64,000 bases of DNA. Origin: Fidelibacterota bacterium (GTDB lineage Bacteria > Fidelibacterota > Marinisomatia > SCGC-AAA003-L08 > JACNLC01). The notes beneath the pieces are model-generated. The model worked only from the letters and a program-made list of their open reading frames with translations, was not told the origin of the DNA and searched no databases. The stretch lies in NCBI GenBank assembly GCA_014381725.1, contig JACNLC010000085.1, positions 12,569 through 76,568 of the forward strand. The letters run 5' to 3'. This document shows, in pieces, positions 11,507 to 47,534 of the stretch (the stretch's first letter is position 1; each line of letters starts with the position of its first letter). The translations under genes were made by a program, and so were the position numbers.

Positions 11507-11738
11507 ATAAACATAGATTTCTTTCTTTGTTATGACCACGAATATGCTAAAATTGCTTCGTGAAATTAACTGTTTATTTTACAAAAAATGTACTTGATAT
11601 TTGGTTGACATTCCCAACATTATCGCGAGCTTCAATTGTTAATAAATGAGTTCCAATTGGAAGGTTGTCATCAAATTCATAACTAACCAAATTTCTGTAT
11701 GAAACATATTCGTGTATAATCTTTTGACCATCAACCGT
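11507..11738. repeat. direct repeat copy B (genuine 3' end of the M23 peptidase gene plus downstream spacer)
   Basis: See copy A; same sequence at a 631-nt offset. Confidence 0.9.
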
Positions 11739-14348: not shown

Positions 14349-14405
14349 TTTATTTAGATATTTAATATCAAATGTATAATCCTCATTCGTAAATTATCCA
14401 TATTT

Positions 14406-25315: not shown

Positions 25316-25323
25316 GAAATTAT

Positions 25324-28323: not shown

Positions 28324-28382
28324 TAGAAAATAAAAAATAAACAACGAACAGACGAAATAAAGCAAGTTCGTAACTTCGCCTT

Positions 28383-28416
28383 GTCCGCCAATGTTTTTCA
28401 GGTGGGCGTTTTCGTT
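28383..28416 (+). terminator. weak candidate terminator after the C10 gene
   Basis: GTCCGCC (28383-28389) pairs with GGTGGGC (28401-28407), including two G-U wobbles. 11-nt loop, followed by GTTTTCGTT. Confidence 0.3.
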
Positions 28417-28491
28417 ATAAACCTTAAAACAATTGCTTGCTACTAACAAAACTAACAAAGTAAATTTACTTCTCGAAAACACAATTTAATT

Positions 28492-28596
28492 ATGAAAAGT
28501 TTCAAAATTATATTATTATTATTGACCATTTGGTGCGTTTCCGTTTCAGCACAAGAAACTTCTGCACCTATTTTTGTATATCCAACCATAACTTGA
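28492..28596 (+). CDS. 34-aa signal-peptide-only mini-ORF (possible gene remnant or small secreted peptide)
   Basis: Own translation: MKSFKIILLLLTIWCVSVSAQETSAPIFVYPTIT*. Sec-type signal with an SAQ-E cleavage-like site. No obvious SD. Confidence 0.25.
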   Translation: MKSFKIILLLLTIWCVSVSAQETSAPIFVYPTIT

Positions 28597-28617
28597 CAAA
28601 CTTAAAAAGGAGCAAAA

Positions 28618-30630
28618 ATGTTGAATAACAAAATAACAAAACTAATCAGTGCAATCTGTGTAATCTGTGGTTTGGTTAGCGGTTTGCTTTTTGCAACTAC
28701 AATAAACATCCCGGCAGATTACAGCACAATACAAGCCGGCTTAAACTCAGCAAGCGAAGGCGACACCGTGCAAGTCTCTGCAGGTACTTACTACGAAAAC
28801 ATCACTTGGCCTGCTACAAACAGCATACAACTAATTGGTAGCGGTGAAGAGGATTGCATTATTGATGGTGATTCTCTGGCAAGTGTGATACGCTTTACAA
28901 GCAGTAATATTGACACAACCACGCTCATAACTGGATTTTCAATACAAAACGGTTTTGCACAAGGAGATTATCCATATAATCATGGCGGCGGGATTTATTG
29001 CTCTTCTTCCAGTCCGAGTTTGGCGAATGTGACGATTTCTGGTAATTCGGCTGAAGGTGTTGGTGGTGGGATTTATTGCCGTAATTATTCCTGTCCGAGT
29101 TTTTCATCAGAGAATCGCTGTAATATCTATTCCAACACCATATCAAACAGCAGAGGAGCAGGTGCGGATATTTTTGCAAATAATTGTCCTGTCATTGATG
29201 TTATCGTAGATACATTCACGGTGTTGACTCCAACTGAATATCACGCATCACCTTTGGATAATTTCACATTTGATATTTTGAATTCGATTATTCCAGAAGA
29301 AGATCAAGTCAACGCAGACCTTTATGTTTCGCCGGATGGAGATAACAGCAATGATGGATTAACCGCAGAGACTCCGCTTAAAACGATTCAATATGCAACC
29401 AGCATCATTCTTGCAGACAGCACCAATCCGCATACGATTCATCTTGCGAATGGAATTTACAGTCCAAGCACCAACGGTGAGTATTTTCCTGTGGAAGTGA
29501 TAAACTATGTTTCGCTTGTAGGAGAATCTGAAGATGGTGTGATTTTAGATGCAGAAGGTGTTGCCGGAGTGATGAGATGTAGATATGTTACCTCTGCCAC
29601 AATTTCACATCTGACATTGACAAACGGTTCGGCTTCTTCCGGTGGCGGGATTTATTGCCGTGAATCTAGTCCGAGTTTAGCGAATGTGACGATAAGTGGC
29701 AATTCGGCTTCTGAATATGGTGGAGGGATTTATTGCGAAGAATCCAGTCCGAGTTTGGCGAATGTAACGATAAGTAATAATTCGGCTTCTGAATATGGTG
29801 GCGGGGTTTTTTGCTATAATAATTCCAGCCCTACTTTTGTGAATGTGACGATTAGTAATAATTCGGCTTCTTCTAATGGTGGCGGGATGTATTTGAATAA
29901 TTCCAGTCCGAGTTTGGTTGATGTGACCATAACGGCTAATTATGCTTCTTTTGGTGGCGGAATTTTTTGCTGGGACAATTCCAGCCCGAGTTTGGTTAAT
30001 TGTATTTTGTGGAATGATGCACCACAGGAGGTTTATTTTAATGTATATTCTGACCCAAATTCAATTATGATTGCATATTCTGATATTCAAGGTGGCGAAG
30101 CAGGAATTGTAACAAACGATAACGGCACAGTTAATTGGGAAGACGGCAATATAAATTTAGATCCGCTGTTTGTAGATGAAGAAAATGGAGATTTTCATCT
30201 TCAAGAAAGTTCGCCCTGCATAGATGCTGGCACAGCGTTTTTTGTGTTTGAAGGCGATACTTTAGTTGATATGAGCGAAGATGAATATGTTGGCTCAGCA
30301 CCAGATATGGGAGCGTTTGAGTATGGAGAAATTGCAGGAATTGAGGATGATTACGAATTATTAATAACGAATTACGAGTTAATGAGAGCATACCCAAATC
30401 CATTTAATCCGAGTACAACAATTAGCTATGCGGTAGAGTCAAACGGCCGTTTGTCTCTACAAATTTACAACATTACTGGTCAATTGGTAGAAACATTGGT
30501 AAACGAGCAAGTAGAAGCTGGTTATCATACAGTAGTTTGGAATGCAAATAATCAGCCGAGTGGAATTTATTTTGCTGTTCTGAGTATTGGTGGATTTTCA
30601 GAGACACAAAAACTACTTCTCTTGAAGTAA
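28618..30630 (+). CDS. right-handed parallel beta-helix (PbH1) repeat protein with T9SS C-terminal domain
   Basis: AAGGAG SD and signal anchor. Repeated coils GGGIYC(x)SSPSLANVTISGNSA. C-terminal YPNPFNPSTTISY...QKLLLLK. Confidence 0.7.
   Translation: MLNNKITKLISAICVICGLVSGLLFATTINIPADYSTIQAGLNSASEGDTVQVSAGTYYENITWPATNSIQLIGSGEEDCIIDGDSLASVIRFTSSNIDTTTLITGFSIQNGFAQGDYPYNHGGGIYCSSSSPSLANVTISGNSAEGVGGGIYCRNYSCPSFSSENRCNIYSNTISNSRGAGADIFANNCPVIDVIVDTFTVLTPTEYHASPLDNFTFDILNSIIPEEDQVNADLYVSPDGDNSNDGLTAETPLKTIQYATSIILADSTNPHTIHLANGIYSPSTNGEYFPVEVINYVSLVGESEDGVILDAEGVAGVMRCRYVTSATISHLTLTNGSASSGGGIYCRESSPSLANVTISGNSASEYGGGIYCEESSPSLANVTISNNSASEYGGGVFCYNNSSPTFVNVTISNNSASSNGGGMYLNNSSPSLVDVTITANYASFGGGIFCWDNSSPSLVNCILWNDAPQEVYFNVYSDPNSIMIAYSDIQGGEAGIVTNDNGTVNWEDGNINLDPLFVDEENGDFHLQESSPCIDAGTAFFVFEGDTLVDMSEDEYVGSAPDMGAFEYGEIAGIEDDYELLITNYELMRAYPNPFNPSTTISYAVESNGRLSLQIYNITGQLVETLVNEQVEAGYHTVVWNANNQPSGIYFAVLSIGGFSETQKLLLLK
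29641..30018. repeat. coding tandem repeat, ~78-nt period x ~5 (beta-helix coils)
   Basis: GGTGG(C/A)GGG unit starts at 29641, 29719, 29797, 29878 and 29953 (spacings 78, 78, 81, 75 nt). An earlier pair lies at ~28984-29100. Confidence 0.85.
30432..30546. repeat. near-identical CTD-coding tract, copy 2 (in the PbH1 gene)
   Basis: Matches 28125-28239 at an offset of 2307 nt. The palindrome has one mismatch here (GAGTCAAACGGCCGTTTGTCTC, 30436-30457). Confidence 0.9.
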
Positions 30631-32972: not shown

Positions 32973-34961
32973 TCACTTTCCCCAAATCAATGGAGATTCT
33001 ATTACCTCGTGATTGCCTTTGGTGATATTTCTACCATTCTCGAAAACTAGGTAACCGTATTTTCCGTAGTGTGGAATTTTACGCGCTAAAGGAATAAGTT
33101 CTCGCTGATTGGACGAATAGAACAACAACCCTGATTTACCATTATTTTGTTTAAATGCCCAAACAAAACTGTGGTCGTCGGAAGTCATAGATTGTTTGTA
33201 AATCTCCAATGAACCATTCGATTTAAGATGTTTCAATTTCGCTGGAATTACACCTAAATAAATTAGGGGTATCTCCGGAATTTCATCTGTTGTAAGAAAC
33301 AATTGTAATATATTTTCTTCGTTGATATGTCCGTTAAATGACCGCGCAAGTTCTGTCCATTCATCTGATTTCTCTGGAACAACAAATCCAAATTCAGGTT
33401 CACCTAACAAATGTCTAATAGTCATATCCATTTCGGAATCATCCAAAGTTCGCATAAGATGGTAATTTGGGTCTATTACTACTTTTTCAACTTCGTGATT
33501 TAAATCCAATTTAGTTAACTCAGAATCAAGAAAGATTTTCGATAAGTTTGTGTTTTCTTTTTCAAAAGTTAATACTTCAACAAACATCGGTTTAATACTA
33601 CCTATTTGTTTGACATAAAAATCATCACTTTCTTTAATTAACTCTAATTTAGGATTTCCCTTTTCATCAATCCACTTTTGTTTCAATTTAGTTAAATCAT
33701 TGCCACTTATTTCTTCGAAAGCATTGAAAAATTCGTCATAACCAGTTTTCTGCCATTGATGTTTTTTTATAACTAATTTTAGAGCTTCTATAAATTTGTC
33801 TTGACCAAGATATTCTTCAATCATATGAAAAATCATAGCTACTTTCCCGTAACCAATTGCACGAGATGACATATCAGTTCTGCTTATAAAATCTGCTGGA
33901 GCAAAATCATTTTCAACTGTAGTATAGATTGAATAATCTTTCAACAAATTCTTGCGATACTGTTCTGCATCATTTTTTGATTTTTGCAATTTATATAAAT
34001 AATCTGCTTGATATGATGTTAGTCCCTCGCACCAATTACCGCCATCTCCGACATACACAGAATTACCCCACCAATTGTGCAAAACTTCGTGTCCGAGTGA
34101 TGTATAAACAATAAACGGCAAATGAATAACCGACCGCCCCAAAACAGTATAAGATGGCATTCCATATCCAGTTGGAAAAAAGTTCTCCACAACCGCAAAT
34201 TTTGAGAATGGATAAGGTGATAACATTTCAGAATACATTTGCACAAATTCTATACTTTTATTCAGATAATCTATTGCCAATGATGAATCTTCAGGGAAGA
34301 AATAGGTGTAAAACTCTATATCATTTACAACTTTTTTGCTGATGACCCACTCTGCTGCAGTTACAAAAATCCCATCTACTTTGTGCAGTGTTTCAAACTC
34401 AGATAATGTAATATCCAACATAAAATTTGTTTTACCTTGATGGATTAATTTCCCTTCAGAAACTGCACTCCATTTTTTGGGAAGATAAATTTTAGTATGG
34501 AAAGTTAGCAAGTCCTCATCTGCCATTGGATAATATCCAGCAGATGGCGACAAAAATACGCCTTGTTCAGAAATTGTTGCGTCAATTTCCATCGCAATTT
34601 TTTCGCGACTGAATGTTGATGATTCTGTATCCTGCAACATCACACCTGAATAATTAACAGAAATATCAGCAGTTTTGGATTCCATCATTTTTCGTTGGAT
34701 AACAATTAGATTCAATCCAACATTTTTATCAAATACTTGTTCAAATTCTCGTGTTCTCCCATTGATAGTTAAGGAATGAATTTCAAGTATATCGGATAAA
34801 TAAAATTCGAAATTACCATCAGAAGTAATCTCAAATGTATCTTCAGCAGTTAATTTATTTGATGCTGGATTAATATTCATCAAAATATCGTGATGAGTAA
34901 TAATTGATTCTGAAAATAGAAATCGAATTCCAACTACCAATACTAAAACTAATTTATTCAT
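32973..34961 (-). CDS. M1 family metallopeptidase (secreted)
   Basis: GHEVLHNWWGN (HExxH) plus the downstream WCEGLTSY Glu. Signal peptide starts at MNKLVLVLVVG (ATG 34961); the track start at 35015 abuts the upstream stop. Confidence 0.75.
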   Translation of the reverse strand: MNKLVLVLVVGIRFLFSESIITHHDILMNINPASNKLTAEDTFEITSDGNFEFYLSDILEIHSLTINGRTREFEQVFDKNVGLNLIVIQRKMMESKTADISVNYSGVMLQDTESSTFSREKIAMEIDATISEQGVFLSPSAGYYPMADEDLLTFHTKIYLPKKWSAVSEGKLIHQGKTNFMLDITLSEFETLHKVDGIFVTAAEWVISKKVVNDIEFYTYFFPEDSSLAIDYLNKSIEFVQMYSEMLSPYPFSKFAVVENFFPTGYGMPSYTVLGRSVIHLPFIVYTSLGHEVLHNWWGNSVYVGDGGNWCEGLTSYQADYLYKLQKSKNDAEQYRKNLLKDYSIYTTVENDFAPADFISRTDMSSRAIGYGKVAMIFHMIEEYLGQDKFIEALKLVIKKHQWQKTGYDEFFNAFEEISGNDLTKLKQKWIDEKGNPKLELIKESDDFYVKQIGSIKPMFVEVLTFEKENTNLSKIFLDSELTKLDLNHEVEKVVIDPNYHLMRTLDDSEMDMTIRHLLGEPEFGFVVPEKSDEWTELARSFNGHINEENILQLFLTTDEIPEIPLIYLGVIPAKLKHLKSNGSLEIYKQSMTSDDHSFVWAFKQNNGKSGLLFYSSNQRELIPLARKIPHYGKYGYLVFENGRNITKGNHEVIESPLIWGK

Positions 34962-35015
34962 ATTTTTCCTTTTTCTCTCACGCAAATGCAGAAAGCGTTT
35001 TGTGTAAAATATCAA

Positions 35016-37634
35016 TTATTTGACAATCACTAGGGTGTGATTTTCTGGAAATTGTAGATATTTCTCAGCTACTTTTTGGATATCTTCAACTGTAATCTTT
35101 TCATATTTTTCAAAGCGGTTAAGTGCTTTTTGATAATCGTCAGAATAAAACTCAAAATATCCCATATAAAATGCTTGACCAATCCGAGTGAGATTTCTCA
35201 TCATATAATGACCTTTACTCGAGTTAATAGTTTTTTCGATTTCGTTTTGTGAAATATCCAATAATTTATCCGGATTAAAATACGATTTCATTCCGTTAGT
35301 GGCTATGTCAATATTTTCGATTCCTGTTCCAATTGATGCTGTCAGCCAACCAATATTACCTTCGTAACCGTCTGACATTCCCAACGAATACGCCAATCCC
35401 TGAGTTTCTCGTAAATCAAACATCATACGATACGATAGTAAATCTGTCATTAACGAAAATGTCGGTTTATCGTCTTTCTCAATTTCAAATTTATATCCCA
35501 ATCTAATCTGAGCTTGTTCCTTGCTCATATCAATTATTTTCTCACTAAAGTCAGTTGATAGTTCTACACCAGAATCAAATTTCTTTGTTGGTTCAGCAAC
35601 TTTTGTCCAAATTGAGTTAAAAATGTTAGTTAGTTCAGAATGAGAAATTCCTGATGAAATCGAAATGATATAATTCTCAGGTAAAAAATATCTTTTTTGT
35701 AGCGATGTTAAATTGTCAATATTCATCATTGATACAGCTTCCATCGTGCCACTAACTTTCCCTATTGAGGGATGATTGTTGCCAAGAAATAACCTCCAAA
35801 ACTCTTTTGATGCAGTTTCTCTTGCGGTGCTTTGTTGCATCCCCAATCTCATTCTTGCATTTGAAATTCCTTCACCAATATTCTCTTCTGCCAAAATTGT
35901 GTTGGATAGCATATGGGTCAATAATTTTATTCCTTCTTCTGCATCTTTTTCCAAACATTCAAATCGGATATAACCAAATTCCGGTGAATTGTAATAATTA
36001 TCGTATGGAATAAATCCCATATCCTTGAATTTTATTTTAGCACCAATGGTTTGCAATTTCTTTTGAAGTTCTTCGGCTGAATATTCATCAGTTCCGGATT
36101 CCAACAACGAATGTAAGATTTCCGCTCCACCGGAAAGAGGTCCTTCGATTACATTTCTGTTCTTGATTAAAATGTGCATCCCAAACATTTCTGAACCACC
36201 ACCAGATGCAGTTACTAAAGTCACCCCAGACGGCAGTACCGTTTTATCATAAACTAACTTAGTATCCTTTGTGTCTTTTGTGGTAAGTCCTTTCGGGAAT
36301 ACAAAGTTATAATGCCGATTTGAGATTAATAACTTTTCGCCGGCTTCAATTATTTGTAAAGGATTTAACTCGCGAATGTTTTGCAGTTTTGACAACACAA
36401 ATTCCCCGCCACCCATTGCCAATTCCGGTGCTTTCATCATAGGATAATAATGCAGTTGGTCGAGTAACGATGCTTCTTCTACAATCATTTCATTCACTTT
36501 AAGTGATATCATTTCTGCAGTAATTATCGTTGATAATCTCTGTTGGATTAATGAAAGTTCATCGTCAAATTTTACTAAAATATCCGATGGATTTTCTTCG
36601 GCAGAAGCTGTAAAATCAATAATCACTTTCCCAAAAGATGGATAATTAGTGTAAGAAACATAAGGGCTGTAATCACCAAGAGTTGTATTAAGTTCTTCGG
36701 TTAATACATCTATCAAAAACTCCGTTTCTAAGGAATATTGTTTTGAAAATGCAGGGGCATCAAAAACTATTTGTCCGTGAATCCGGTCTGTTTCAAAATT
36801 CGTTTGGTTGACAGTCATAGATGGAGCGAAACTAACAGGTTGATAGAATTCTACAGGCATAGGTTGATATTGGCCATAATTATTTTCTAACATCAATTTC
36901 AATTGAGTTTCATCAAAACTACCAATAACTGTTAACAGCATATTGTTTGGGACATAATGGTTTTTAAAAAAATCATATACATCGTCTCTGTTGAGATTTT
37001 CTATCGTATTTGGAGTCCCAAGAGTTGGCAGTCCAACACCTGAATCACCAAAATTCTTTCTGTCAAAATAATTCTGGATTTCATATTCGTTTCTGTCTCT
37101 GTCTTTGCGGATTTCTTCAATTACAATGCCGCGTTCTTTCTCAAATTTCTCTTCCGGGATTATCGAATTAAACAGCATATCGGATTGGACATCCATCCCA
37201 TTTTCAAGATATTCAGATGGCATTAGCAAAAAATAATCAGTGAAGAATTTTCCTGTAAATGCGTTTGAATACATTCCATAGAAATCAGTTTCTTCATAGA
37301 GTTCATCTTGAGTTCTTTGTTCAGTTCCATTAAACAGTAGATGCTCAAGCATATGAGACATTCCCGAAGTGCTATAATTTTCGTAAGCTGAACCAACTCT
37401 AACGGACATATTCAAACAAACCATCGGAGAAGCATCGTTCTGAATCGCCAAAACTTCCATCCCATTTTCGAGATAAAATGTTTGAGTATTCTGTGGAAAT
37501 TGTGTTACACTAGGAACTTCAATCTCAGAATTTAACATTTGTTTATTGTGAGTGTTATGTTTGCAAATTGCTTGTTTGTGATGCGCACATCCAAATAGTG
37601 AAATGATTGATATTATTAAAATTATTTTCTTCAT
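35016..37634 (-). CDS. M16 family (pitrilysin/insulinase-like) zinc peptidase, fused two-lobe form, probable lipoprotein
   Basis: Lipobox-like ISLFGC. Inverted zinc motif HMLEHLLFNGT with downstream ...RGIVIEEI. The 872-aa length fits fused active and inactive M16 halves. Confidence 0.8.
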   Translation of the reverse strand: MKKIILIISIISLFGCAHHKQAICKHNTHNKQMLNSEIEVPSVTQFPQNTQTFYLENGMEVLAIQNDASPMVCLNMSVRVGSAYENYSTSGMSHMLEHLLFNGTEQRTQDELYEETDFYGMYSNAFTGKFFTDYFLLMPSEYLENGMDVQSDMLFNSIIPEEKFEKERGIVIEEIRKDRDRNEYEIQNYFDRKNFGDSGVGLPTLGTPNTIENLNRDDVYDFFKNHYVPNNMLLTVIGSFDETQLKLMLENNYGQYQPMPVEFYQPVSFAPSMTVNQTNFETDRIHGQIVFDAPAFSKQYSLETEFLIDVLTEELNTTLGDYSPYVSYTNYPSFGKVIIDFTASAEENPSDILVKFDDELSLIQQRLSTIITAEMISLKVNEMIVEEASLLDQLHYYPMMKAPELAMGGGEFVLSKLQNIRELNPLQIIEAGEKLLISNRHYNFVFPKGLTTKDTKDTKLVYDKTVLPSGVTLVTASGGGSEMFGMHILIKNRNVIEGPLSGGAEILHSLLESGTDEYSAEELQKKLQTIGAKIKFKDMGFIPYDNYYNSPEFGYIRFECLEKDAEEGIKLLTHMLSNTILAEENIGEGISNARMRLGMQQSTARETASKEFWRLFLGNNHPSIGKVSGTMEAVSMMNIDNLTSLQKRYFLPENYIISISSGISHSELTNIFNSIWTKVAEPTKKFDSGVELSTDFSEKIIDMSKEQAQIRLGYKFEIEKDDKPTFSLMTDLLSYRMMFDLRETQGLAYSLGMSDGYEGNIGWLTASIGTGIENIDIATNGMKSYFNPDKLLDISQNEIEKTINSSKGHYMMRNLTRIGQAFYMGYFEFYSDDYQKALNRFEKYEKITVEDIQKVAEKYLQFPENHTLVIVK

Positions 37635-37681
37635 TTGTTTTCCTTTTTCATATCTAATCTGTTTTTAGCAGTGTACAATTT

Positions 37682-38974
37682 CTATTTTCCAGAAACTGTT
37701 AATCCACTAAACTGAATCCACGGGATTATTGATGTTCCATCATTTGTTCGTTCAGAAGAAATGTTTTTGATGTTCATAAACATTTTTGCGATATTACCTG
37801 AAACCATCGTTTCGGAAATCGGGAATTTCACTTTTCCATTCTCAATGTAGTAACTATTTTTAGCAACTCCAGAGAAATCTCCATTTTCACTCGGATTCCC
37901 ACCTGAAAATCGTGCCATTAAAATTCCCTGTTTCACAGATTTAATTAAATCGTCTAGTGATTTGTCTCCTGCATCAATTACGAACGCACCACCACTATTT
38001 ACAGCTTTTTCTAAACCAGTTTTGTTTGAACCATATAGTCCAAGCAAAAATGTTTTCAGTTCGCCTTTATCAATAACTGTACTGTTTTTTGTTTCGTATC
38101 CATCCGAAGTTACAAAATACCCGACTTCAATATCATTTGATACTGGTCTGCAATGTATGGATAGCTTTTTGTCAGCAATCTGCTCATTTAGTTTATCTTT
38201 ATAAATGGATGTTCCGGAGATGAGTGGATAATCACTAATCATAGATTCAAATGCAGAAACAAAATCACCAAAACATTCTGGTGTGATGATTACATCGCCT
38301 ACAAATTTCTCAGGGATTTGTTGAGTTGTAATTTGTTCTTCTGACTGTTTCATTAATAATTCTATGTTCGCATATTCGTGTAGTGATTTAGCAAGTTCTA
38401 TTGATGAAAATCCCGCATAATTAAATGATGAAGTATTCTTGCCATCTTTAGAAGTAAACATCGGGCCAAATCCATACACCCCCTTGTTAATTGTAAAATC
38501 AATACCATTTGAGTTCATCAAAATAGTTTGAGCATAACTAAAATCTAAAATTGCTTGTTCCAAAATTACTTTCGGATATTTGTTATTGGTAAATTCCACA
38601 AATTCTTTTAGTCGAGAATACATTAAATCTAAATTTGGTTCTTTTGATCCTAAATTAAAAGTCTTAGCTGGTTGGAATTCAGAAATGTCGTTTGCTGTGT
38701 CGGGCTTGGTTGAGTTAGTAATATCCATCAATTCAACTATCGCTTGGTCAATAGATTCTTTGTCTAATTTATTTAAACTTATATTTCCCTTTTTATTTTC
38801 TTTGATAGCTTTTAGTGAAAGATTTCTATTAAATGTCGTTCTAAACAAACTTAATTCACCAGCATCAACATTGAGCTCATTTTTGGAGCCCACAGAAAGA
38901 GAGCAACTTACTTTATCTGCACCAGCTTTGATAATTTCATCAATACAATATTTTACAATTTCTCGATTCGTCAT
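37682..38974 (-). CDS. PmbA/TldE-family protein (pair B)
   Basis: C-terminal pattern GDFSGVAKNSYYIENGKVKFPISETMVSGNIAKMF. Start is placed at ATG 38974 (MTNREIVKYC), 1 nt after the tldD stop, with GGAGG upstream. The track's longer start overlaps tldD. Confidence 0.75.
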   Translation of the reverse strand: MTNREIVKYCIDEIIKAGADKVSCSLSVGSKNELNVDAGELSLFRTTFNRNLSLKAIKENKKGNISLNKLDKESIDQAIVELMDITNSTKPDTANDISEFQPAKTFNLGSKEPNLDLMYSRLKEFVEFTNNKYPKVILEQAILDFSYAQTILMNSNGIDFTINKGVYGFGPMFTSKDGKNTSSFNYAGFSSIELAKSLHEYANIELLMKQSEEQITTQQIPEKFVGDVIITPECFGDFVSAFESMISDYPLISGTSIYKDKLNEQIADKKLSIHCRPVSNDIEVGYFVTSDGYETKNSTVIDKGELKTFLLGLYGSNKTGLEKAVNSGGAFVIDAGDKSLDDLIKSVKQGILMARFSGGNPSENGDFSGVAKNSYYIENGKVKFPISETMVSGNIAKMFMNIKNISSERTNDGTSIIPWIQFSGLTVSGK

Positions 38975-38975
38975 T

Positions 38976-40355
38976 TTATCTACCTCCAATATTAATTTTG
39001 CATTTAACTGCAGGGCCACCCATACCAACAGGAATTTGTTGCTTTTTCCCGCACATTCCACCACTTGACCAAGCCATATCATCTGAAATCATTGTAATGG
39101 TTTTGAGCATATCAAAAGCAACACCAGAAATTGTGGTATTGCGAATGGCTCGTTTAATTTTACCTTTTTTTATTTCGTAACCCAGCACAACTCCGAACAT
39201 GAATTCGCTGGTAGAATCCGCCTGCCCGTTACTCGATTTAATCAAATAATATCCATCATCAATTGATGCAATCATTTCTTCAAGTTTACTAGTTCCCGGA
39301 ACGATAGCTGTGTTTCGCATTCTAACGAGTGGTTCGTCATAAAATCCAAATGCTCGAGCATTCCCGGTTGGAGACATTTTGAGTTTCATTGCGGTTTCTT
39401 TATTGTGCATAAAATTCTTTAAAATTCCGTTTTCGATAATAACCACATCCTCACCAGTTGTGCCTTCATCATCTACATAAAGTGGAACTGGACAAGTTTT
39501 ACCGTGTGCAGTATGGGCATAATCGATTAAAGTAACCATTTCTGAAGCTACTTTTTGATTGAGATAATCGCCAGCAACAGAGCCACCCAAAACTAAATCA
39601 CCTTCAGTTGTATGTCCAATGGCTTCGTGAGATAATATTCCTGCAAGGTCTGCATCTAAGATAACATCTTTATAACCTGCTTCTGCGTGAACTCCTTCTG
39701 ATTTTTTCATTAGATGTTCATATTGTTCAGCAATTTTTGGGAACAAATCTTTTGGAGATGTAAACAAATCCTCAAACTGTCCTAATCCACCATAAACATC
39801 ATACAAACTAATTGGTTCTCCATTTACTACAACCGTCATATCGATATAAAATATCACGCGTGGAATCATAGAATAACTATGCGAACCGGTGGAAGTAATT
39901 ATTAATTTCTCCATATCTAAACCTGACATCGTTACCGCTCGCGAATCAAGATTTGGATAAGTTTTATTAATGTGATCATCAATTGTTTTGAGAAATTCTA
40001 TTAACTCTTTACGAGATAATTTTTGTTTTTTAGTTGAAAAATCAATGTCATAATTTCCAGTGGTAAATGGTAAATCGTTCATCATCAAATTTTCTTTTGA
40101 ACTCAAGAATGTTGCATTTCCTGAAGCTGATTTTATTACTCGTTTAATCTCTTCGTCAGAAACATTTGGATTTGATGCAAGTCCCCAATTCCCTTCGCTA
40201 TATACTCGTGCTGACACACCACTTTTAGCAGACTTGGTATTTCCCCAAATATCTCCTTCAACTATTGATATACCATCACTACGATTTTCTTGAACTCGCA
40301 ACTCTGTATATCCTTTGAATAAATTTGTAAACTGTGTTAAATCTTTTCTAATCAT
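38976..40355 (-). CDS. tldD: TldD-family metalloprotease (pair B)
   Basis: HEAIGHTTEGD (HExxxH) and C-terminal GMCGKKQQ...VGMGGP typical of TldD. Confidence 0.8.
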   Translation of the reverse strand: MIRKDLTQFTNLFKGYTELRVQENRSDGISIVEGDIWGNTKSAKSGVSARVYSEGNWGLASNPNVSDEEIKRVIKSASGNATFLSSKENLMMNDLPFTTGNYDIDFSTKKQKLSRKELIEFLKTIDDHINKTYPNLDSRAVTMSGLDMEKLIITSTGSHSYSMIPRVIFYIDMTVVVNGEPISLYDVYGGLGQFEDLFTSPKDLFPKIAEQYEHLMKKSEGVHAEAGYKDVILDADLAGILSHEAIGHTTEGDLVLGGSVAGDYLNQKVASEMVTLIDYAHTAHGKTCPVPLYVDDEGTTGEDVVIIENGILKNFMHNKETAMKLKMSPTGNARAFGFYDEPLVRMRNTAIVPGTSKLEEMIASIDDGYYLIKSSNGQADSTSEFMFGVVLGYEIKKGKIKRAIRNTTISGVAFDMLKTITMISDDMAWSSGGMCGKKQQIPVGMGGPAVKCKINIGGR

Positions 40356-40485
40356 AATTTTCCTTTATTAGTTAATAGCAAGGAGCTGAATCTCGCAAAG
40401 TCGATAAGACCCAAAATAATCTACCTTTGGTTTCTCTTTTCCGATTTTGACTTTATAAGCTTTCTACTTTATAAACTTTCAACTC

Positions 40486-41808
40486 TTACAGTGTAAGTGA
40501 AAACGATTTTAGCAAAATTCCAGGACAAACGACTCCACCTAAAGCTCTACCTTCGTAAGTTTCAACATCTAGATTTAACTTTGCTACATTATCCACTTCT
40601 TCTAAATTTTCTCCGAAGAAATTATACAAACTATCATCAAATCGCATTGTTTCGATTGGTGCTACTATTTCTCCATTTTCTACCCAAAAACAGGCGTATC
40701 GTGTCATCCCTGTAATTCTTCCGCCGATGTTGTCGCTCCAATTTAGATAATGCAGATTGCTTAAATAAATTCCTGTGTCCAATTTTTGGAAAATGTCTTT
40801 TTTGTCTAAAGTTCCCGTTTTCATTATTGGAGATCTAAGTGATTCACCTTCACCAGCATTGTTGGATTTTTTTTCATATTCTTTAGCGGTTCGTGTGCTA
40901 ACCAATGTATTTTCAAGATTGCAGTTTTCGATAAGTGATAACTGTTCCGGAGCAATTTCTCCGTTTCCATTAAATCGTGGAACAAGTCCTTTCCTGAAAT
41001 CTTCAGATAATCCAAACAAAGGAGATAGTTTTGCATTTTCGTTTCGCATTTTCCCGAAAGCACTTTGTCCCTGTTGAATTGATGCTTCGCTGATACCATT
41101 CCACGAGAACATACCCAAAATATCTGCTACACCTGCTGGAGCGATATAAGTCCGATAATTACCGGGTTTAAGTTTCTTAGCAGGTTGTTCCATCATTCTC
41201 AATTTTTTGATGGAATCTGCCATTGTTGTTTCGTAATCTTTTTGATTCCATTCAGAACCAGCAAAGGTTGTTTTCACCATTTTCTCATCTGATGTGATAA
41301 GAGAATAATCTAAAGAAAATGTTTCTGTGGAAAACCAATGTTTCTGCCCTGCTGAATTTGCATTGCCTATAAATATTTTCCCTGATGCCCAAATACCGGA
41401 TAAATCCACACCTTGCATTGCTGGAGTAAGAGCATTTACAGCATCTTCAATTGGTAATAAATTACCTTTATGTTCTTCCTCACTTGAACCTGTATCTTCT
41501 GGTAAAACAATATAAGGATCTTCCGGAAGATGAACAACTTCCTTGCGAAGTCGCTGTAATTCTTGTTGCACATTAGCAATATCAGATTTTTCATCGCTGG
41601 TAACGGTAATTCCACCACTACAGGTTTTGTTTTGGTGAATTAGTTCGAGGGAGATGCTCACTTCGTCAACCAATCCTGTTTGTCGGATTTTGGATTTACT
41701 AAACCTAATAAATTGGCTGTTTTCTCCACTAAATGATATTTTTAGATGCTCATCTTTTGAAATCTGATTAAGTAATGCATCACTTATTTTATTAAATAAC
41801 TTTTTCAT
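40486..41808 (-). CDS. PmbA/TldE-family protein (pair A)
   Basis: C-terminal GGRITGMTRYACFWVENGEIVAPIETMRFDDSLYNFF pattern. No HExxxH motif. Confidence 0.7.
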   Translation of the reverse strand: MKKLFNKISDALLNQISKDEHLKISFSGENSQFIRFSKSKIRQTGLVDEVSISLELIHQNKTCSGGITVTSDEKSDIANVQQELQRLRKEVVHLPEDPYIVLPEDTGSSEEEHKGNLLPIEDAVNALTPAMQGVDLSGIWASGKIFIGNANSAGQKHWFSTETFSLDYSLITSDEKMVKTTFAGSEWNQKDYETTMADSIKKLRMMEQPAKKLKPGNYRTYIAPAGVADILGMFSWNGISEASIQQGQSAFGKMRNENAKLSPLFGLSEDFRKGLVPRFNGNGEIAPEQLSLIENCNLENTLVSTRTAKEYEKKSNNAGEGESLRSPIMKTGTLDKKDIFQKLDTGIYLSNLHYLNWSDNIGGRITGMTRYACFWVENGEIVAPIETMRFDDSLYNFFGENLEEVDNVAKLNLDVETYEGRALGGVVCPGILLKSFSLTL

Positions 41809-41885
41809 ATTTTCCCTTATTTACAATAATTTTTACCACAAAGTTGTTACAATATTCATACTTGAAATTCGGTCTCCTGCTTCCC

Positions 41886-43325
41886 CTACACTCCGCCAAA
41901 AACTTCAATATCTTCAAACAGACAAACCGGTGATGCGTGTCCAACTCGAATCGCCTGATTTGGTTCACCTTTTCCGCAATATGGAGTCCCATACATTTTG
42001 AAAGTGTCTTTATTCCCAACCATTTTCAGATTATTCCAAAATGGAATAGTAATTGCTCGATAATTCGGATTTTTTACTGCTTTTGTGAATTTACCGTTTT
42101 CGATTAATTTACCATATTCACATCCAAACTGGAATTTGTTGCGATAATCATCAATTGACCACGACCGATTTGATTCCATATACACGCCTTTTTCTATTGA
42201 TGATATAATTTCGTCAAACGAAGATTCTCCCGGTTCAAGATTCAAATTCGCCATACGGTCAATCGGAGCACGATTCCACGAACTCGCTCTGAAATTTGCT
42301 ACCCCCTGCATACCAGAACGAACTTGACTTTCCATCCCACCTTGAGGTCTGAGTAAAACACCATCTTTGATGATATATTCTTTTGTAGCTTTCATCCCGC
42401 CATCATCAAAATTATACGATGCGTGTTGGTGTTCAATCGTTGGGTCAAAAGTGATGTTCATTAATTTTGAGCCGTATTGCAAATTCCCAAAATCTTTTTC
42501 TCGGACGAAACTCCAACCTGCATAATTTCTTTCATCGCCTAAAATTCTGTCAAGTTCAGTCGCGTGACCTACACTTTCGTGTATTTGTATTAACATTTGA
42601 TCAGGTGATAGTACAATGGGCAATTTCCCTGTTGGACATTCCTCAGCAGTTAGCAACTCTATTGCTTGCTTGCTGACTTTTTCAGCATTTTGAAGAATTT
42701 CATCTTCATTGATAGTTTCCATCCCAACTTGGTGACTGTTTGCCATCAATCCGCCATCTGTGCGAGTTTGTGTGATAATACCATCTTGAGCCGTTGCAGA
42801 AAAATCGCTTGAAATAATTAGAAGTTTTTGTTCAACATCGCTTCCGTTTGAGCTGACATATTTCATTTCAGACTCAACGAATCTGAAAAGACTAAACGCA
42901 CTAACGATTTTATCGGATAATTTCAATTTATCATAAGCTTTAAGAAGTAAATTGTTTAAGTCTCCTGCAGAATATGTGTTCAAATCTTGCGAGTAAGACG
43001 AAATATATTTGCCTTTTGCAATTGGTCGAACTTTGTCTGTAAAATGATGAAGCGAATACTTGGATGCAATGTTCGCCTGCTTCAATGCTTTTTCAGCGGC
43101 TTTTTGGATTGCGCTACGAGTAAGCTGATGTGTTCCATAATATCCAAACTGACCGTTAGATAAAACTTCAACCATAACTCCGTGAGTTGTATCTTTAGAA
43201 TTTGCTTGTGGTTTACCATCACGGATAACTCTGTAAGTTGTCGATTCACGAACTTCGCGTAACCCAATCCATTCTGCATTGATATTAATTCCGCTAATTG
43301 CTGATTTTATGTCGAAATGATTCAT
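41886..43325 (-). CDS. TldD-family metalloprotease (pair A)
   Basis: HESVGHATELD (HExxxH) and C-terminal CGKGEPNQAIRVGHASP. ATG 43325 follows GAGGGA; the track used TTG 43337. Confidence 0.8.
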   Translation of the reverse strand: MNHFDIKSAISGININAEWIGLREVRESTTYRVIRDGKPQANSKDTTHGVMVEVLSNGQFGYYGTHQLTRSAIQKAAEKALKQANIASKYSLHHFTDKVRPIAKGKYISSYSQDLNTYSAGDLNNLLLKAYDKLKLSDKIVSAFSLFRFVESEMKYVSSNGSDVEQKLLIISSDFSATAQDGIITQTRTDGGLMANSHQVGMETINEDEILQNAEKVSKQAIELLTAEECPTGKLPIVLSPDQMLIQIHESVGHATELDRILGDERNYAGWSFVREKDFGNLQYGSKLMNITFDPTIEHQHASYNFDDGGMKATKEYIIKDGVLLRPQGGMESQVRSGMQGVANFRASSWNRAPIDRMANLNLEPGESSFDEIISSIEKGVYMESNRSWSIDDYRNKFQFGCEYGKLIENGKFTKAVKNPNYRAITIPFWNNLKMVGNKDTFKMYGTPYCGKGEPNQAIRVGHASPVCLFEDIEVFGGV

Positions 43326-43534
43326 TGATTCCCTCAAAAATAATAGTTGTTCTGTAAAAATACGACGAGAATTTACGGTATAAAGTCGTTGCAGACCAAA
43401 ATAATCTCTTTAAGTTTCCAGTATATAAAAATCTGTCCAAAACGATTTCAATTATTTCTGTTCGGCAAATGATTCTAGTTATTTTATTTCACATTATAAC
43501 TTTCTTAACTTTTACATATTGATAGGCGAGTAAT

Positions 43535-44581
43535 ATGACTTCAAAGAAGATAAAATTAACGAGTTTTAGTTCGGGTGCTGGCTGAGCATGTAAATTAAGT
43601 CCATCGGACTTAGCTCAAGTTTTGAGCACATTAAAATCAACTACACCTGGAAATGTTATCGGATTCGATTCATCAGAAGATGCAGCTGTGTATCCGATGA
43701 ATGATGATCAATTTCTCCTGCAAACTGTGGATTTTTTCACTCCGATTGTAGATGATCCATTTACATTTGGACAAATTGCGGCGGTGAATGCACTCTCCGA
43801 TATTTATGCGATGGGTGGAAAGCCACTATTTGCATTAAATGTTGTCGGTTTCCCAAGTGATGATTTACCGATTTCTGTCCTATCTGATATTCTGCTTGGC
43901 GGAGAAGATATTGCATCAAAAGCTGGAATTTCAATTTTGGGTGGGCATACAATCAAGGACAAAGAACCAAAATACGGAATGGTTGTTACAGGAATTGTTA
44001 ATAAAGAAAATATGACTAGAAACGATTCTGCAAAACAAGATGATTTGCTGGTTTTGACTAAACCACTCGGTTCTGGAATTATTACAACTGCAATCAAACA
44101 AAATTTTGCAGATGAACAGATGATTGAGTCTGTGCAAGATGTAATGAAAACTCTCAATAACACAGCTTCTGAAGTGATGACAGATATTGGAGTAAATGCT
44201 TGTACAGATATTACCGGTTATGGATTATTGGGACATTTGTTAGAGATGTGCAAATCCAGTCAGGTTACTGCAGAAATTGGGTTTAGTTCGATTCCATTTT
44301 TGGAAGGTGTATTTGAATTTGCTCAAAAGGGCATTGTACCTGGTGGTTCAAAACGAAATTTTGAGTTTGTTTCTCCTAACATTAAGTTTGATAATGCACT
44401 TGCAGACCATCAAAAATTGATGCTTGCTGATGCACAAACTTCAGGTGGATTGTTAATTTCTGTATCGGAAGACAAATGTCAATTACTCATACAAGAATTG
44501 AAAAAACAAAATGTAACACCAGTTGCAATAATCGGTAGAATTATAGGAAAGACTGATAGTTTTATAAAAGTTCACAATTAG
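43535..44581 (+). CDS. selD: selenide, water dikinase (selenophosphate synthetase) with in-frame TGA = selenocysteine at codon 17
   Basis: Own translation from ATG 43535: MTSKKIKLTSFSSGAG[TGA 43583-43585]ACKLSPSDLAQVLSTLK..., continuing in the same frame into the track ORF at 43622. The GAG-U-xCK loop corresponds to E. coli SelD SHGAGCGCKISP. Downstream motifs DAAVY, DFFTPIVDDPFTFGQIAA and TDITGYGLLGHL match. Confidence 0.85.
43596..43612 (+). promoter_or_regulatory. candidate bacterial SECIS hairpin for the selD UGA
   Basis: TAAGTCC-ATC-GGACTTA forms a perfect 7-bp stem beginning 10 nt after the UGA. This is comparable to the ~11-nt spacing known for E. coli fdhF. Confidence 0.5.
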
Positions 44582-44663: not shown

Positions 44664-47534
44664 TTATTTCAATAACAACAATTTTTGTGTTTGTGTAAAA
44701 TTCTCAGATTGCAGTTTTACAAAATAAATCCCACTTGGATAATTTGATGCATTCCAAGTTACTTCGTGATATCCAGCTTCTTTTATACCATTTAGCAAAG
44801 TTTCTATCAATCTACCATTTATATCAAACATTTGTAGAGACACTCGGCCGTTTGTTTCTACCATTGGAACACTATAACCAATAACCGTTTTGGGATTAAA
44901 TGGATTTGGATAAGCATTTAGCAATTGATAATTAACAAATGATAATTGAGAATTATTCTCCAATTGTTCTTCTCCAAAATCGTCCATTACAACTTCAACA
45001 AACTCCTGTGCAGAACTGGTTTCCATAAAATAGAGCGGAAATCCAAGAACGAAGACTTTATTCTCACCAATTGATCTAATTCCGCAGACTTCGTTCTCCC
45101 ACTCGGAATCATCGGAATCAGAATCAAAACGATAAATTGGTTCAGCACCATTCAACGGAACAAATTTATTAACATTTCTTAATTTATAATCCCATTGAGA
45201 CGGAGCTTTTGAAGAATCAACTTCCATATTTGCGAAACCAGTATCCCCAAAAACACCAAAGAAATCTTCTGAAGTATTAAACTCGATATTTGCAATATGT
45301 AAATAATCCTGCAAAAATGCTTCATCTTCATTCGATAATTGTTTCCAAGATGAAAGTAGTAAATTCCCACCCGCATCAATATACTGTTTTAGATTGTATG
45401 TATCACTATCAAGCGGATTGTTGTTGATGTCGTCATTATGCCACACAATTGAAGAATACTTTGCCATTTCGAATAATTCAGGCAGTCCTTGATCGTCTGC
45501 ATCCCAATTTGTGGTTAGATAATTAGATAACAACAAATCGTAAAAGTCGTCAACTTCTTCATCTGTTGGAAATGGATTACTCTGAGAATTATCTTTTGTC
45601 TTATCCACAATTAAAATTCCGTTATCAAATGTAAACTCCACAGGAATCATTGAAATTTCATTTGAGAATTTACTAAAATACTCCAAATTCGTGTCAAGTA
45701 TTGCAACAATTTTATATTGGTATTCTGTTCCTGAAATTACATTTGTGTCATTATAATCGTTTTCAGTAATTGGCTCAGTATTGATTTGTGTCCATCCTTC
45801 TGAATCATATTTTCGATAAACATTAAAACCTTCAATTGTTGGATCAAAATATTCTTCCCACATTAACATAACAGAGCCATCGCGATTACTATTAGCTTCT
45901 TCGATTTCTGGAATTTGCTCCGAAAATCCGTGATCCAATACCCAATTATTTGGGTCCCAATCAATGTTTGGGAATTCTATTTCAGAAAAATATGTGTAAA
46001 TATTTACACCATCTTCACTCCAAACAGAATATTCTACACCACTCATTTCAAACGGAATTGGCATATTAAAAGATGTTGTTTCACTTCCATAAGAAACCAA
46101 AGTAATTTTTATAGAATCTGTCAACTCGGAAGAATATGTTGCATAGTCATAATCCGGACTTCCAATACCATAAATCCACTCTTGGAAAAACCAATTTAGG
46201 TCGCTTCCATAGTGTGATTCAAATACACTTTGTAAATCTTCTGTAACTGCATTTTGGTAGGCATAAATTTCAAGATAATCCTGAAGTGAAGCAAAATATA
46301 TTTCATCTCCCACCACTTTTCGCAACATATGGTTTACCCACGCCCCTTTGTTGTAAATAATTCCGTCAAATATATCCCAAACTCCTATTGTATCAATCGT
46401 GAACACTGATCTCGAATCACCCCATCCAAACTCCATACTATTCATATAGTTGTGATATGAATTTACACCACTCGTATTTTCTACATAGAGTGCCTCGGAA
46501 TATGTTGCAAATCCTTCATTAAGCCATCCGTGTTGCCAATCTCTGCAAGTTACTTTGTCACCAAACCATTGGTGAGCAAGTTCGTGAACCTGCACTATTC
46601 CGCTCGTTGTCGCCGTGGTTACACAAGTCTGATGTTCCATAGCCCAACTACTATTTGTGACTTTAGCAATCGCAAATTTCTCATCGACAAAAGGATATAG
46701 TCCATACAAATCAGAGAAGATCGGAAGTGCCGTTTCAACATCGTGAAATCCTGATGGAACCGTGCCAGTTGTATAATAAATAATAGGCATCGAGTCATTT
46801 TCGGCGTAATGAAAATATTCTATTGTTTCTAAATACGGATAAACATTCACAACAAACAGGTAAGTTGCAATTGGATAATTTTCTAACCAATGGTGAGTTT
46901 TTGTGTCATCGTAATTATTGATTATCTCTTGGAGAACACCGTTTGAAGCAACAATCAAATCATCTGGAACTGTAAGTTTTAAATCAACATAATTTGCTTT
47001 ATCAGATGGATGATCTTTGCAAGGCACCCAATCGGATAATCCGTAAGGACAGTTAAGAGAATAAAACCCTCCACTAGAATATACAATGCCACCTTCCCAC
47101 GCCACGCCCGAACCAGTAGCGCCTGAATATTCAATTGTAATTGATAGAGTATCATTTTCCAAAAAATTACTTTCAAAAAGCAAATTAATACGATTGTTAA
47201 AATGATTTTCGGATAAAACTGATATTTGATTATCATCTACAAACACTGACACATTTTCAATATCTAGATGGTCTTTAGCGTCAAGAATTATTTCATGTGT
47301 CTCGTTTTTTATGGATACATCTATAATTACTGAACCATCAACTTGTTGAGTTTCTGGATCAATTTGGATATCTAGCACATAGCTTAGTACATCATAATCA
47401 TTTTGTTCTGGTAATAAATCTCGATGAAATTCAATTGGATTTGAATTTTGATTCTTGATTTGACATTCTTTTGTTGGAATGTTAGATGAATACAGAAATG
47501 TAATAATTGACAATATAATTATAATTTTCTGCAT
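44664..47534 (-). CDS. M1 family aminopeptidase (aminopeptidase N-like) with C-terminal extension and T9SS sorting domain
   Basis: HELAHQWFGD and WLNEGFATY motifs. Signal peptide starts at MQKIIIILSIITF (ATG 47534, AGGAG upstream). C-terminal YPNPFNPKTVIGY...SGIYFVKLQSENFTQTQKLLLLK. Confidence 0.8.
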   Translation of the reverse strand: MQKIIIILSIITFLYSSNIPTKECQIKNQNSNPIEFHRDLLPEQNDYDVLSYVLDIQIDPETQQVDGSVIIDVSIKNETHEIILDAKDHLDIENVSVFVDDNQISVLSENHFNNRINLLFESNFLENDTLSITIEYSGATGSGVAWEGGIVYSSGGFYSLNCPYGLSDWVPCKDHPSDKANYVDLKLTVPDDLIVASNGVLQEIINNYDDTKTHHWLENYPIATYLFVVNVYPYLETIEYFHYAENDSMPIIYYTTGTVPSGFHDVETALPIFSDLYGLYPFVDEKFAIAKVTNSSWAMEHQTCVTTATTSGIVQVHELAHQWFGDKVTCRDWQHGWLNEGFATYSEALYVENTSGVNSYHNYMNSMEFGWGDSRSVFTIDTIGVWDIFDGIIYNKGAWVNHMLRKVVGDEIYFASLQDYLEIYAYQNAVTEDLQSVFESHYGSDLNWFFQEWIYGIGSPDYDYATYSSELTDSIKITLVSYGSETTSFNMPIPFEMSGVEYSVWSEDGVNIYTYFSEIEFPNIDWDPNNWVLDHGFSEQIPEIEEANSNRDGSVMLMWEEYFDPTIEGFNVYRKYDSEGWTQINTEPITENDYNDTNVISGTEYQYKIVAILDTNLEYFSKFSNEISMIPVEFTFDNGILIVDKTKDNSQSNPFPTDEEVDDFYDLLLSNYLTTNWDADDQGLPELFEMAKYSSIVWHNDDINNNPLDSDTYNLKQYIDAGGNLLLSSWKQLSNEDEAFLQDYLHIANIEFNTSEDFFGVFGDTGFANMEVDSSKAPSQWDYKLRNVNKFVPLNGAEPIYRFDSDSDDSEWENEVCGIRSIGENKVFVLGFPLYFMETSSAQEFVEVVMDDFGEEQLENNSQLSFVNYQLLNAYPNPFNPKTVIGYSVPMVETNGRVSLQMFDINGRLIETLLNGIKEAGYHEVTWNASNYPSGIYFVKLQSENFTQTQKLLLLK

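Follow-up and report, generated by a model that had tools for sequence, protein, structure and literature searches.

Two divergent TldD/TldE pairs beside predicted exported M16 and M1-like peptidases in a modular gene array of a Fidelibacterota bacterium

What might a marine bacterium gain from encoding two TldD/TldE proteases side by side, followed by two peptidases that carry export signals? The question is raised by a 64,000-nucleotide stretch of Fidelibacterota DNA (the window; assembly GCA_014381725.1, contig JACNLC010000085.1, positions 12,569 to 76,568 of the forward strand), in which the region 32973–43325 holds six co-oriented minus-strand genes in the order TldD1, PmbA1, TldD2, PmbA2, M16 and M1 (open reading frame (ORF) listing). 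An earlier note, made from the sequence alone, had described this region as a six-gene peptidase array, and its anatomy held: all six ORFs were found at their coordinates and Pfam confirmed the family of each. The reading we favour, with a probability of roughly 0.55, is a modular gene cluster for peptide catabolism, specific to its lineage, in a marine heterotroph with a proteolytic lifestyle (Candidatus Marinimicrobia). No new type of system is involved; six proteins of known peptidase families are encoded in a modular arrangement that is specific to one lineage. The features of the array and its upstream flank are as follows.

41886–43325, minus strand: TldD1, 479 aa from ATG, start matching the public gene call; Pfam TldD/PmbA, three domains
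40486–41808, minus strand: PmbA1 (TldE1), 440 aa; Pfam C-terminal domain only (PmbA_TldD_3rd, 2.4e-23)
40356–40485, minus strand: spacer between pair 1 and pair 2, 130 nt; holds AGATTATTTTGG at 40411–40422
38976–40355, minus strand: TldD2, 459 aa; Pfam TldD/PmbA, three domains
37682–38974, minus strand: PmbA2 (TldE2), 430 aa; Pfam TldD/PmbA
35016–37634, minus strand: M16, 872 aa; Pfam M16 and M16_C; predicted lipoprotein (MKKIILIISIISLFG/C)
32973–34961, minus strand: M1-like, 662 aa from ATG; distant Pfam M1 match
43326–43621, minus strand: non-coding region upstream of the array, likely its promoter region, shared divergently with a plus-strand AIRS-family gene

The intergenic gaps measure, in gene order, 77, 130, 1, 47 and 54 nt. 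At the tldD2/pmbA2 junction (GGAGGT-AGA-TAA-A-ATG) a single nucleotide separates stop from start and the Shine–Dalgarno sequence lies within tldD2, in agreement with the note, and the motifs it had named (HESVGH, HEAIGH, HMLEH and HEVLH) were each located in their protein by motif search. Pfam E-values range from 1e-31 to 8e-55 for TldD/PmbA, and are 9e-27 for M16 and 1e-25 for M16_C. Exact copies of the array proteins are encoded on contig JADHUP010000002.1 (GCA_016784485.1), which NCBI labels as a Candidatus Marinimicrobia bacterium metagenome-assembled genome (MAG), and on several marine metagenome contigs.

The two TldD/TldE pairs belong, on sequence evidence, to two old clades that diverged anciently. 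TldD1 and TldD2 (D1 and D2) share 23% identity, and PmbA1 and PmbA2 (E1 and E2) have no BLAST-detectable similarity; profile comparison finds full-length homology between D1 and D2 (99.2% probability, 25% identity) and a weak link between E1 and E2 (61% probability, E 8e-5). Because D1 and D2 are so dissimilar and E1 and E2 lie beyond BLAST detection, a tandem duplication does not account for the arrangement; where the note saw a whole pair duplicated in tandem, two different TldD/E clades stand side by side. A recent duplication, with near-identical copies of which one is decaying, is ruled out by the same divergence.

Both TldD proteins retain the residues of the metal site. HESVGH begins at residue 249 of TldD1 and HEAIGH at residue 243 of TldD2, and HExxxH is present in 92/92 TldD1-type and 85/85 TldD2-type sequences. 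A conserved C-terminal cysteine in a GxC or xCGK motif is the third metal ligand of TldD (PMC3497727, PMC5810440); its counterparts, C450 in PYCGKG of TldD1 and C435 in GMCGKK of TldD2, are each invariant in their own alignment. PF01523, PF19290 and PF19289 are above threshold in TldD1 and in TldD2. PF19289 was also detected in PmbA1 and PmbA2, which have no such cysteine, and HExxxH is found in none of the 92 PmbA1-type and none of the 66 PmbA2-type members. The four proteins have no hydrophobic N-terminal segment and no twin-arginine (RR) motif, and are therefore predicted to be cytoplasmic. Against the NCBIfam equivalog cut-offs, TldD1 scores 143 and TldD2 270 bits where 635 are required (the archaeal TldD model), and 96 and 171 bits where 513 are required. 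Judged by these scores, both are members of the TldD family and not equivalogs of E. coli or archaeal TldD.

Searches against PDB sequences place pair 2 nearer than pair 1 to the characterised members. TldD2 matches E. coli TldD at 1.8e-45, and PmbA2 matches the PmbA/TldE chains 1vpb, 3qtd, 5nj5_B and 6j6a with E-values down to 2.6e-27. The best match of TldD1 is also E. coli TldD (4.5e-24), over the C-terminal half only, and PmbA1 has no match among PDB sequences. TldD2 comes from a widespread ‘archaeal-type’ clade and TldD1 from a divergent one. Since PmbA1 lacked a PDB sequence match, its structure was modelled. Single-sequence prediction reached a predicted local distance difference test (pLDDT) score of 31, and we used instead an AlphaFold2 model built on an alignment of 31 family representatives (pLDDT 95, predicted template modelling score 0.91). 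The model superposes on TldE/PmbA chains with template modelling (TM) scores of 0.77–0.81 (5njb_B, 1vl4, 3qtd) and on TldD chains with 0.70; against E. coli TldE the score is 0.81, at 14–16% identity. The model gives PmbA1 the TldE fold, and because it superposes best on TldE/PmbA chains, pair 1 is a bona fide TldD/E clade, far from the characterised members. PmbA1-type proteins form 383 clusters at 50% identity (E ≤ 1e-30).

The distance of pair 1 from known proteases invites another explanation, that its role is that of an amidohydrolase on some substrate other than a peptide, comparable to TldD/E-type N-deacetylases in lincosamide biosynthesis, and that the array mixes unrelated chemistries. 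The low NCBIfam score of TldD1 (143 against 635 bits) and the missing PDB sequence match of PmbA1 would suit it, and a 2022 review by Vobruba et al. is said, going by its title, to count N-deacetylases among the TldD/E family. Three observations make it very unlikely all the same: HExxxH and the cysteine ligand are invariant in TldD1, the PmbA1 fold superposes on E. coli TldE, and the genomic company is one of peptidases and peptide transporters.

To place the pairs among relatives, 80 loci were listed from each of two scans, one of genomes anchored on TldD1 and one of metagenomes anchored on TldD2; the counts below are samples, not frequencies, and L and P numbers are labels of relatives' loci and proteins in this comparison. 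TldD1 has more than 120 homologues at 64–85% identity, mostly in Marinimicrobia, and the listed loci span Marinimicrobia, Cyanobacteria (54–59% identity), Bdellovibrionota, Betaproteobacteria and others. PmbA1 directly follows TldD1 in 65 of the 68 listed loci with enough downstream sequence, across four phyla. Homologues of TldD2 at 58–68% identity were found in Cloacimonadota, Firmicutes, Spirochaetota, Elusimicrobia, Fermentibacteria and Marinimicrobia; with few exceptions, PmbA2 comes next after TldD2 in the 80 metagenome loci. This strict adjacency across phyla implies cognate D1–E1 and D2–E2 pairing, presumably as heterodimers; pair 2 is additionally coupled translationally at the tldD2/pmbA2 junction. 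The cyanobacterial loci (L021–L058 and others, from heterocystous and filamentous Cyanobacteria) encode a pair 1 that is 54–59% (D) and 47–50% (E) identical to the Marinimicrobia proteins; in the pair-1 tree these sequences group with L022, beside Marinimicrobia, surprisingly close for such distant phyla.

The array consists of three separately conserved modules, pair 1, pair 2 and M16–M1, and is not one indivisible operon design: the modules occur separately and in several combinations. Three lineages share the full six-gene order, their TldD1 proteins being ~68–100% identical: the window, L087/L088 (TldD1 85% and M16 82% identical to the window) and the P0243 contig (JGI 3300072015; M16 71% identical, gaps of 12, 36, 1 and -1 nt), so that the arrangement is conserved in relatives. 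The genes that flank the block differ in the two further lineages, and its persistence there goes beyond chance. Because both flanks of the P0243 contig are unlike those of the window, the block appears to have been kept through rearrangements. That contig also has a called ORF of 45 aa in the M16–M1 interval (locus coordinates 11621–11758), where the window has a 54-nt gap. A four-gene version, pair 1–M16–M1 without pair 2, is found in L089/L090, L007 and L178, and in L089 and L178 an Opp oligopeptide ATP-binding cassette (ABC) transporter is divergently adjacent to it. Pair 1–pair 2 without M16/M1 is found in L091/L092 and in 17 of the 80 listed TldD2-anchored metagenome loci. Among the listed TldD1-anchored loci none has TldD2 downstream, and only L007 has M16. 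M16–M1 occurs without any TldD/E in L176 (Fidelibacterota CP070787.1) and L177; there it comes after a TonB-dependent receptor, a ~1000-aa protein and a PorV-like protein, and before an M1 protease with a type IX secretion system (T9SS) sorting domain (L176 only), S66, an Orn/Arg decarboxylase and M55. This long co-directional cluster (2384–18912 in L176) resembles a peptide-utilisation locus analogous to a polysaccharide utilisation locus; its ~1000-aa protein has no Pfam match. Tricorn_N/PD40 proteins adjoin the M16 orthologue in L177 and L179. In a more distant case, L024 (Marinimicrobia MAG MED589, 12765–14684), a secreted M1-like protein is encoded directly after pair 1, with 22% identity to the window protein over 677 aa and with HExxH lost; it may be a pseudo-peptidase. 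Having pair 1 followed by an M1-like gene, L024 suggests that the link between the two is older than the six-gene clade.

The third module encodes the two exported peptidases. The M16 protein contains PF00675 and two stretches of PF05193, and is a fused two-lobe M16B-type enzyme; in the orthologue of the P0243 contig the C-terminal half likewise matches M16 and M16_C. HMLEH is at residue 94 and is kept in 4/4 orthologues. The N-terminus (MKKIILIISIISLFGC) carries a lipobox, LFGC, which reads SINC or LSNC in orthologues; its cysteine is conserved in three of them (L087, L089, L007), which supports the lipobox-like signal described for the 872-aa protein. Among PDB sequences it comes nearest to bacterial M16B proteins, MPP-beta and PqqL, and the family comprises clam-shell oligopeptidases (PMC12731061). 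The orthologue group is restricted to Marinimicrobia/Fidelibacterota (47–82% identity), and matches outside it are at 31–35%. Of nine M16 contexts examined, eight have the M1-like gene adjoining M16, the exception being L179. The product of this gene has a Sec-type signal peptide that is conserved in orthologues, as expected of the secreted M1 in the earlier note. The gluzincin motif reads HEVLHNWWGNSVYVGDGGNWCEG (HEVLH...E), with the glutamate spaced two residues under the canonical x18, and PF01433 matches only at profile positions 71–218, the C-terminal part of the catalytic domain (6.6e-11). PDB matches are to aminopeptidase N and tricorn factor F3 (1e-9 to 1e-7). Motif search found no G.MEN (GxMEN) motif and Pfam no N-terminal β-domain (PF17900), and because neither was detected we use the label ‘M1-like’, which does not imply aminopeptidase activity.

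How might these enzymes work together? In the proposed scheme, T9SS-secreted endopeptidases encoded around the array would cleave proteins extracellularly, the M16 lipoprotein and the secreted M1-like peptidase would trim the resulting oligopeptides in the periplasm or at the membrane, and after uptake the cytoplasmic chambers D1E1 and D2E2 would degrade the peptides processively to short fragments; the substrates, and any division of labour between D1E1 and D2E2, are inferred. TldD/E is known as a closed heterodimeric chamber that only unfolded peptides enter and in which truncation is processive and independent of sequence (PMC5810440), and Marinimicrobia consume protein and dissolved organic matter, with genomes that encode extracellular peptidases (PMC8359207). 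Peptide catabolism is favoured because the window is rich in peptidases and the modules of relatives adjoin Opp or TonB-dependent uptake systems. By Pfam, the window encodes S8, C10 and M1 peptidases with T9SS sorting domains, together with M23, M28-PDZ and an MA-clan/PD40/Omp85 fusion, and a TonB-dependent receptor is encoded next to the M16 orthologue in L176, L177 and L179. Of the two functions that the note had offered, an import-and-degrade peptide catabolic line fits the Opp neighbours, the TonB-dependent receptor context and the T9SS peptidases of the window. That interpretation survives in its anatomy and in this catabolic line; the tandem duplication and the single indivisible operon do not.

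Several points weigh against peptide catabolism by a joint system. TldD/E and M16/M1 act in different compartments, the former cytoplasmic and the latter exported, and in E. coli the roles of TldD/E are housekeeping and maturation, not nutrition. No peptide transporter was found among the window ORFs scanned by Pfam. The 130-nt spacer with its repeated motif may, from its sequence, give pair 2 and the downstream genes a promoter of their own. The modules also separate easily: most Marinimicrobia loci listed have pair 1 alone; of the 56 listed TldD2-anchored loci that extend 1.4 kb or more upstream, 15 carry pair 1 beside pair 2 but no M16/M1; and of the 34 that extend 3 kb or more downstream, none has M16.

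Since each module also lives alone, coincidental adjacency is a serious alternative. The TldD/E pairs would then be housekeeping enzymes for signal peptides, antitoxins and misfolded fragments, standing uncoupled, in one Marinimicrobia clade, beside a separate periplasmic M16–M1 nutrient dyad. Every module is conserved alone and in varied combinations, pair 1 occurs in phyla of different lifestyles, including Cyanobacteria and Bdellovibrionota, the products are split between cytoplasmic and exported, and several tldD/tldE pairs per genome are both known and common (PMC3497727). Coincidence accounts less well for a six-gene block that persists while both flanks change, for a four-gene pair 1–M16–M1 version in at least three further lineages, for the degenerate M1-like gene after pair 1 in the more distant L024, and for partners that are all peptidases, with peptide transporters as neighbours in relatives. 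We hold it to be possible and, on balance, doubtful.

The other function offered in the note, processing machinery for some peptide substrate, leads to a cluster for a ribosomally synthesised and post-translationally modified peptide (RiPP), in which TldD/E would remove a leader as in microcin B17, or act as in the ammosamide and biphenomycin clusters, with M16 and M1 as extra leader-trimming enzymes. RiPP leader peptidases are documented from each of the TldD/E, M16 and M1 families (PMC10885120), and TldD/E homologues lie within some biosynthetic gene clusters (PMC12424672, PMC12707348). In and around the array, however, no precursor-like ORF was found: the gaps hold only short, non-conserved ORFs, in line with the note, and the upstream region only short, unconvincing ones. 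The neighbourhoods examined in the window and in relatives contain no cyclodehydratase, radical-SAM, MNIO, PEARL, lanthipeptide or exporter genes. M16 and M1 carry export signals, whereas enzymes of those families that remove RiPP leaders usually do so in the cytoplasm, and the neighbours vary between lineages. With neither a precursor ORF nor a modification enzyme in the contexts examined, a RiPP cluster was rejected, and we rate it as very unlikely.

If the array serves peptide catabolism, are its genes expressed together? Co-transcription of the six is plausible on sequence grounds because the gaps contain no terminator-like hairpins, pair 2 is coupled translationally and one orientation is kept throughout. 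A scan of the array for sigma-70 promoters and terminators gave no more predictions than expected from shuffled sequence, and placed no terminator-like hairpin in an intergenic gap; promoters of the Fibrobacterota–Chlorobiota–Bacteroidota (FCB) group fall outside that tool. The 12-mer AGATTATTTTGG occurs twice on the minus strand, at 43396–43407 (~70 nt before tldD1) and at 40411–40422 (~55 nt before tldD2), each time ahead of a similar G(G)TCT...CGACTTT stretch. The pair is statistically weak, with 37/100 shuffles giving at least two matches at one mismatch. Of the two copies, only the one ahead of tldD1 is conserved in L087, as the GTAGATTA(T/C)TTTG element. The AGATTATTTTGG element could be a promoter or operator element.

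The neighbours of the array encode an AIRS-family protein, a Cu-ATPase, T9SS peptidases and cytochrome c biogenesis proteins. Four large T9SS-sorted secreted proteins flank it on both sides, at 23162–30630 (plus strand) and 44664–47534 (minus strand): an S8 subtilase, a C10 peptidase with an I69 inhibitor prodomain and an FG-GAP propeller, a DUF1565/PMP-repeat protein and a 956-aa M1 aminopeptidase. Further away, a 1014-aa ORF at 53663–56707 (plus strand) joins Peptidase_MA_2, PD40/DPPIV-type β-propeller repeats and a C-terminal Omp85-superfamily barrel; such a product, a peptidase with its own barrel as outer-membrane anchor, would be unusual. A System II cytochrome c biogenesis pair (ResB-like and CcsA-like) lies at 47625–50568 (minus strand) with a conserved 170-aa ORF in between, as it does in L087; this ORF has no Pfam match. 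No TonB-dependent receptor (Plug or barrel) was matched by Pfam among the window ORFs scanned, which include all of at least 600 aa, and tRNA and Rfam scans of the window returned nothing.

How did two such different pairs come to be neighbours? We built neighbour-joining trees with 100 bootstraps, pair 2 of the third six-gene lineage (P0243 contig) being outside the set. In the concatenated pair-1 tree, lineages of the double-pair, pair-1-only, four-gene and six-gene types intermingle within Marinimicrobia, with weak deep nodes (37–54%). All double-pair TldD2 sequences form one clade, from which the six-gene lineage is excluded in 81% of replicates when TldD2 alone is used (98 taxa) and in 100% when PmbA2 is added. 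For the six-gene pair 2, ~49% of replicates favour the double-pair clade as sister and ~51% favour stand-alone Cloacimonadota-like pairs; its neighbour-joining sister is P0162, a stand-alone pair on a 5-kb contig. The spacer between pair 1 and pair 2 is 130 nt in the window and 107 nt in L087, against 10–40 nt in most double-pair loci, and its length would fit an insertion of pair 2. Two histories are possible: an ancestor of the six-gene lineages may have gained pair 2 in the interval between pair 1 and M16, or the four-gene lineages may have lost an old double pair; the six-gene pair 2 may accordingly be of vertical or of horizontal descent. A position outside the double-pair clade makes it possible that pair 2 was recruited beside pair 1 twice, and two independent recruitments would argue for selection on the juxtaposition. 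Six metagenome contigs of very low GC content (26–29%; L127, L128, L134, L138, L143 and L167) carry a pair 2 of the double-pair type, nested in that clade, and apparently lack pair 1 upstream, which may reflect secondary separation of the pairs.

What would it mean if the catabolic reading were right? A bolder version of it, which we consider speculative and unlikely, is that the two anciently diverged chambers are non-redundant and co-expressed and, in one clade, are wired to exported M16/M1 as an ATP-independent, compartment-spanning ‘peptide disassembly line’. If true, this would give TldD/E a nutritional role, with chambers that differ, for example, in entry channel or product length. The physiological role of TldD/E has been called elusive, even though ~60% of bacteria and nearly all archaea have these proteins (PMC5810440). 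The locus puts them in a nutritional, peptide-degrading context in an abundant uncultivated ocean phylum, with two old clades systematically side by side, of which the TldD1/TldE1 clade is shared with Cyanobacteria and Bdellovibrionota, and it offers testable candidates for a catabolic TldD/E function and for specialisation among paralogues. The note had not recognised the arrangement as a described operon; our literature searches likewise found no description of the two-clade TldD/E tandem in Marinimicrobia, of its M16–M1 extension or of the TldD1/E1 clade, although more than one tldD/tldE pair per genome is documented (PMC3497727).

Which known systems does the array resemble most? E. coli TldD/TldE (MEROPS M103, PDB 5NJ5; PMC5810440) shares with both pairs the combination of an HExxxH and cysteine subunit with a catalytically dead paralogue and the same three-domain architecture, and the array proteins are predicted to be cytoplasmic. 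In E. coli, tldD and pmbA are single genes at unlinked positions, whereas the array has adjacent D–E dyads, two different ones in tandem; similarity to pair 1 is low (14–16% identity for E1, and TldD1 aligning over its C-terminal half only), and neither pair reaches the equivalog cut-offs for E. coli or archaeal TldD. Sulfolobus solfataricus likewise has two tldD–tldE pairs, Sso0660/0661 and Sso1151/1152 (PMC3497727; adjacency judged from consecutive locus numbers), and the active-site motif of Sso0660 is HEAIGH, as in TldD2 (PMC3497727). The Sulfolobus pairs are at separate loci, whereas those of the array and of many Marinimicrobia are directly adjacent, and in one clade are followed by exported M16 and M1.

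For the exported part, the PqqL/YddB and FusC/FusA import systems (PMC6793856, PMC6071955) come closest. Like the array M16, their M16 proteins are fused, four-domain, periplasmic and ~870–930 aa long, and the coupling of a periplasmic fused M16 to a TonB-dependent receptor is known (PMC6793856); in L176 and L177 such a receptor is encoded upstream of the M16 orthologue in the same orientation. PqqL and FusC are among the PDB matches of the array protein, with weak similarity (E ~1e-11 to 1e-12) over the N-terminal domain only. Unlike these systems, the window has no TonB-dependent receptor among the ORFs scanned, the array M16 is a predicted lipoprotein, M16 of this type is paired with an M1-like protein (8/9 contexts) and nothing indicates an iron-protein substrate. 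The ammosamide and biphenomycin RiPP clusters (PMC12424672, PMC12707348, PMC10885120) also contain clustered tldD/tldE-like genes; here there is no precursor, modification enzyme or exporter, and the partners are peptidases only. With the archaeal tricorn/F1–F2–F3 cascade (M1 factor F3, PDB 1Z1W) the array would share a concept, ATP-independent peptidases passing on ever shorter peptides; the likeness is one of analogy only, since the array has no tricorn core protease and its components are split between periplasm and cytoplasm.

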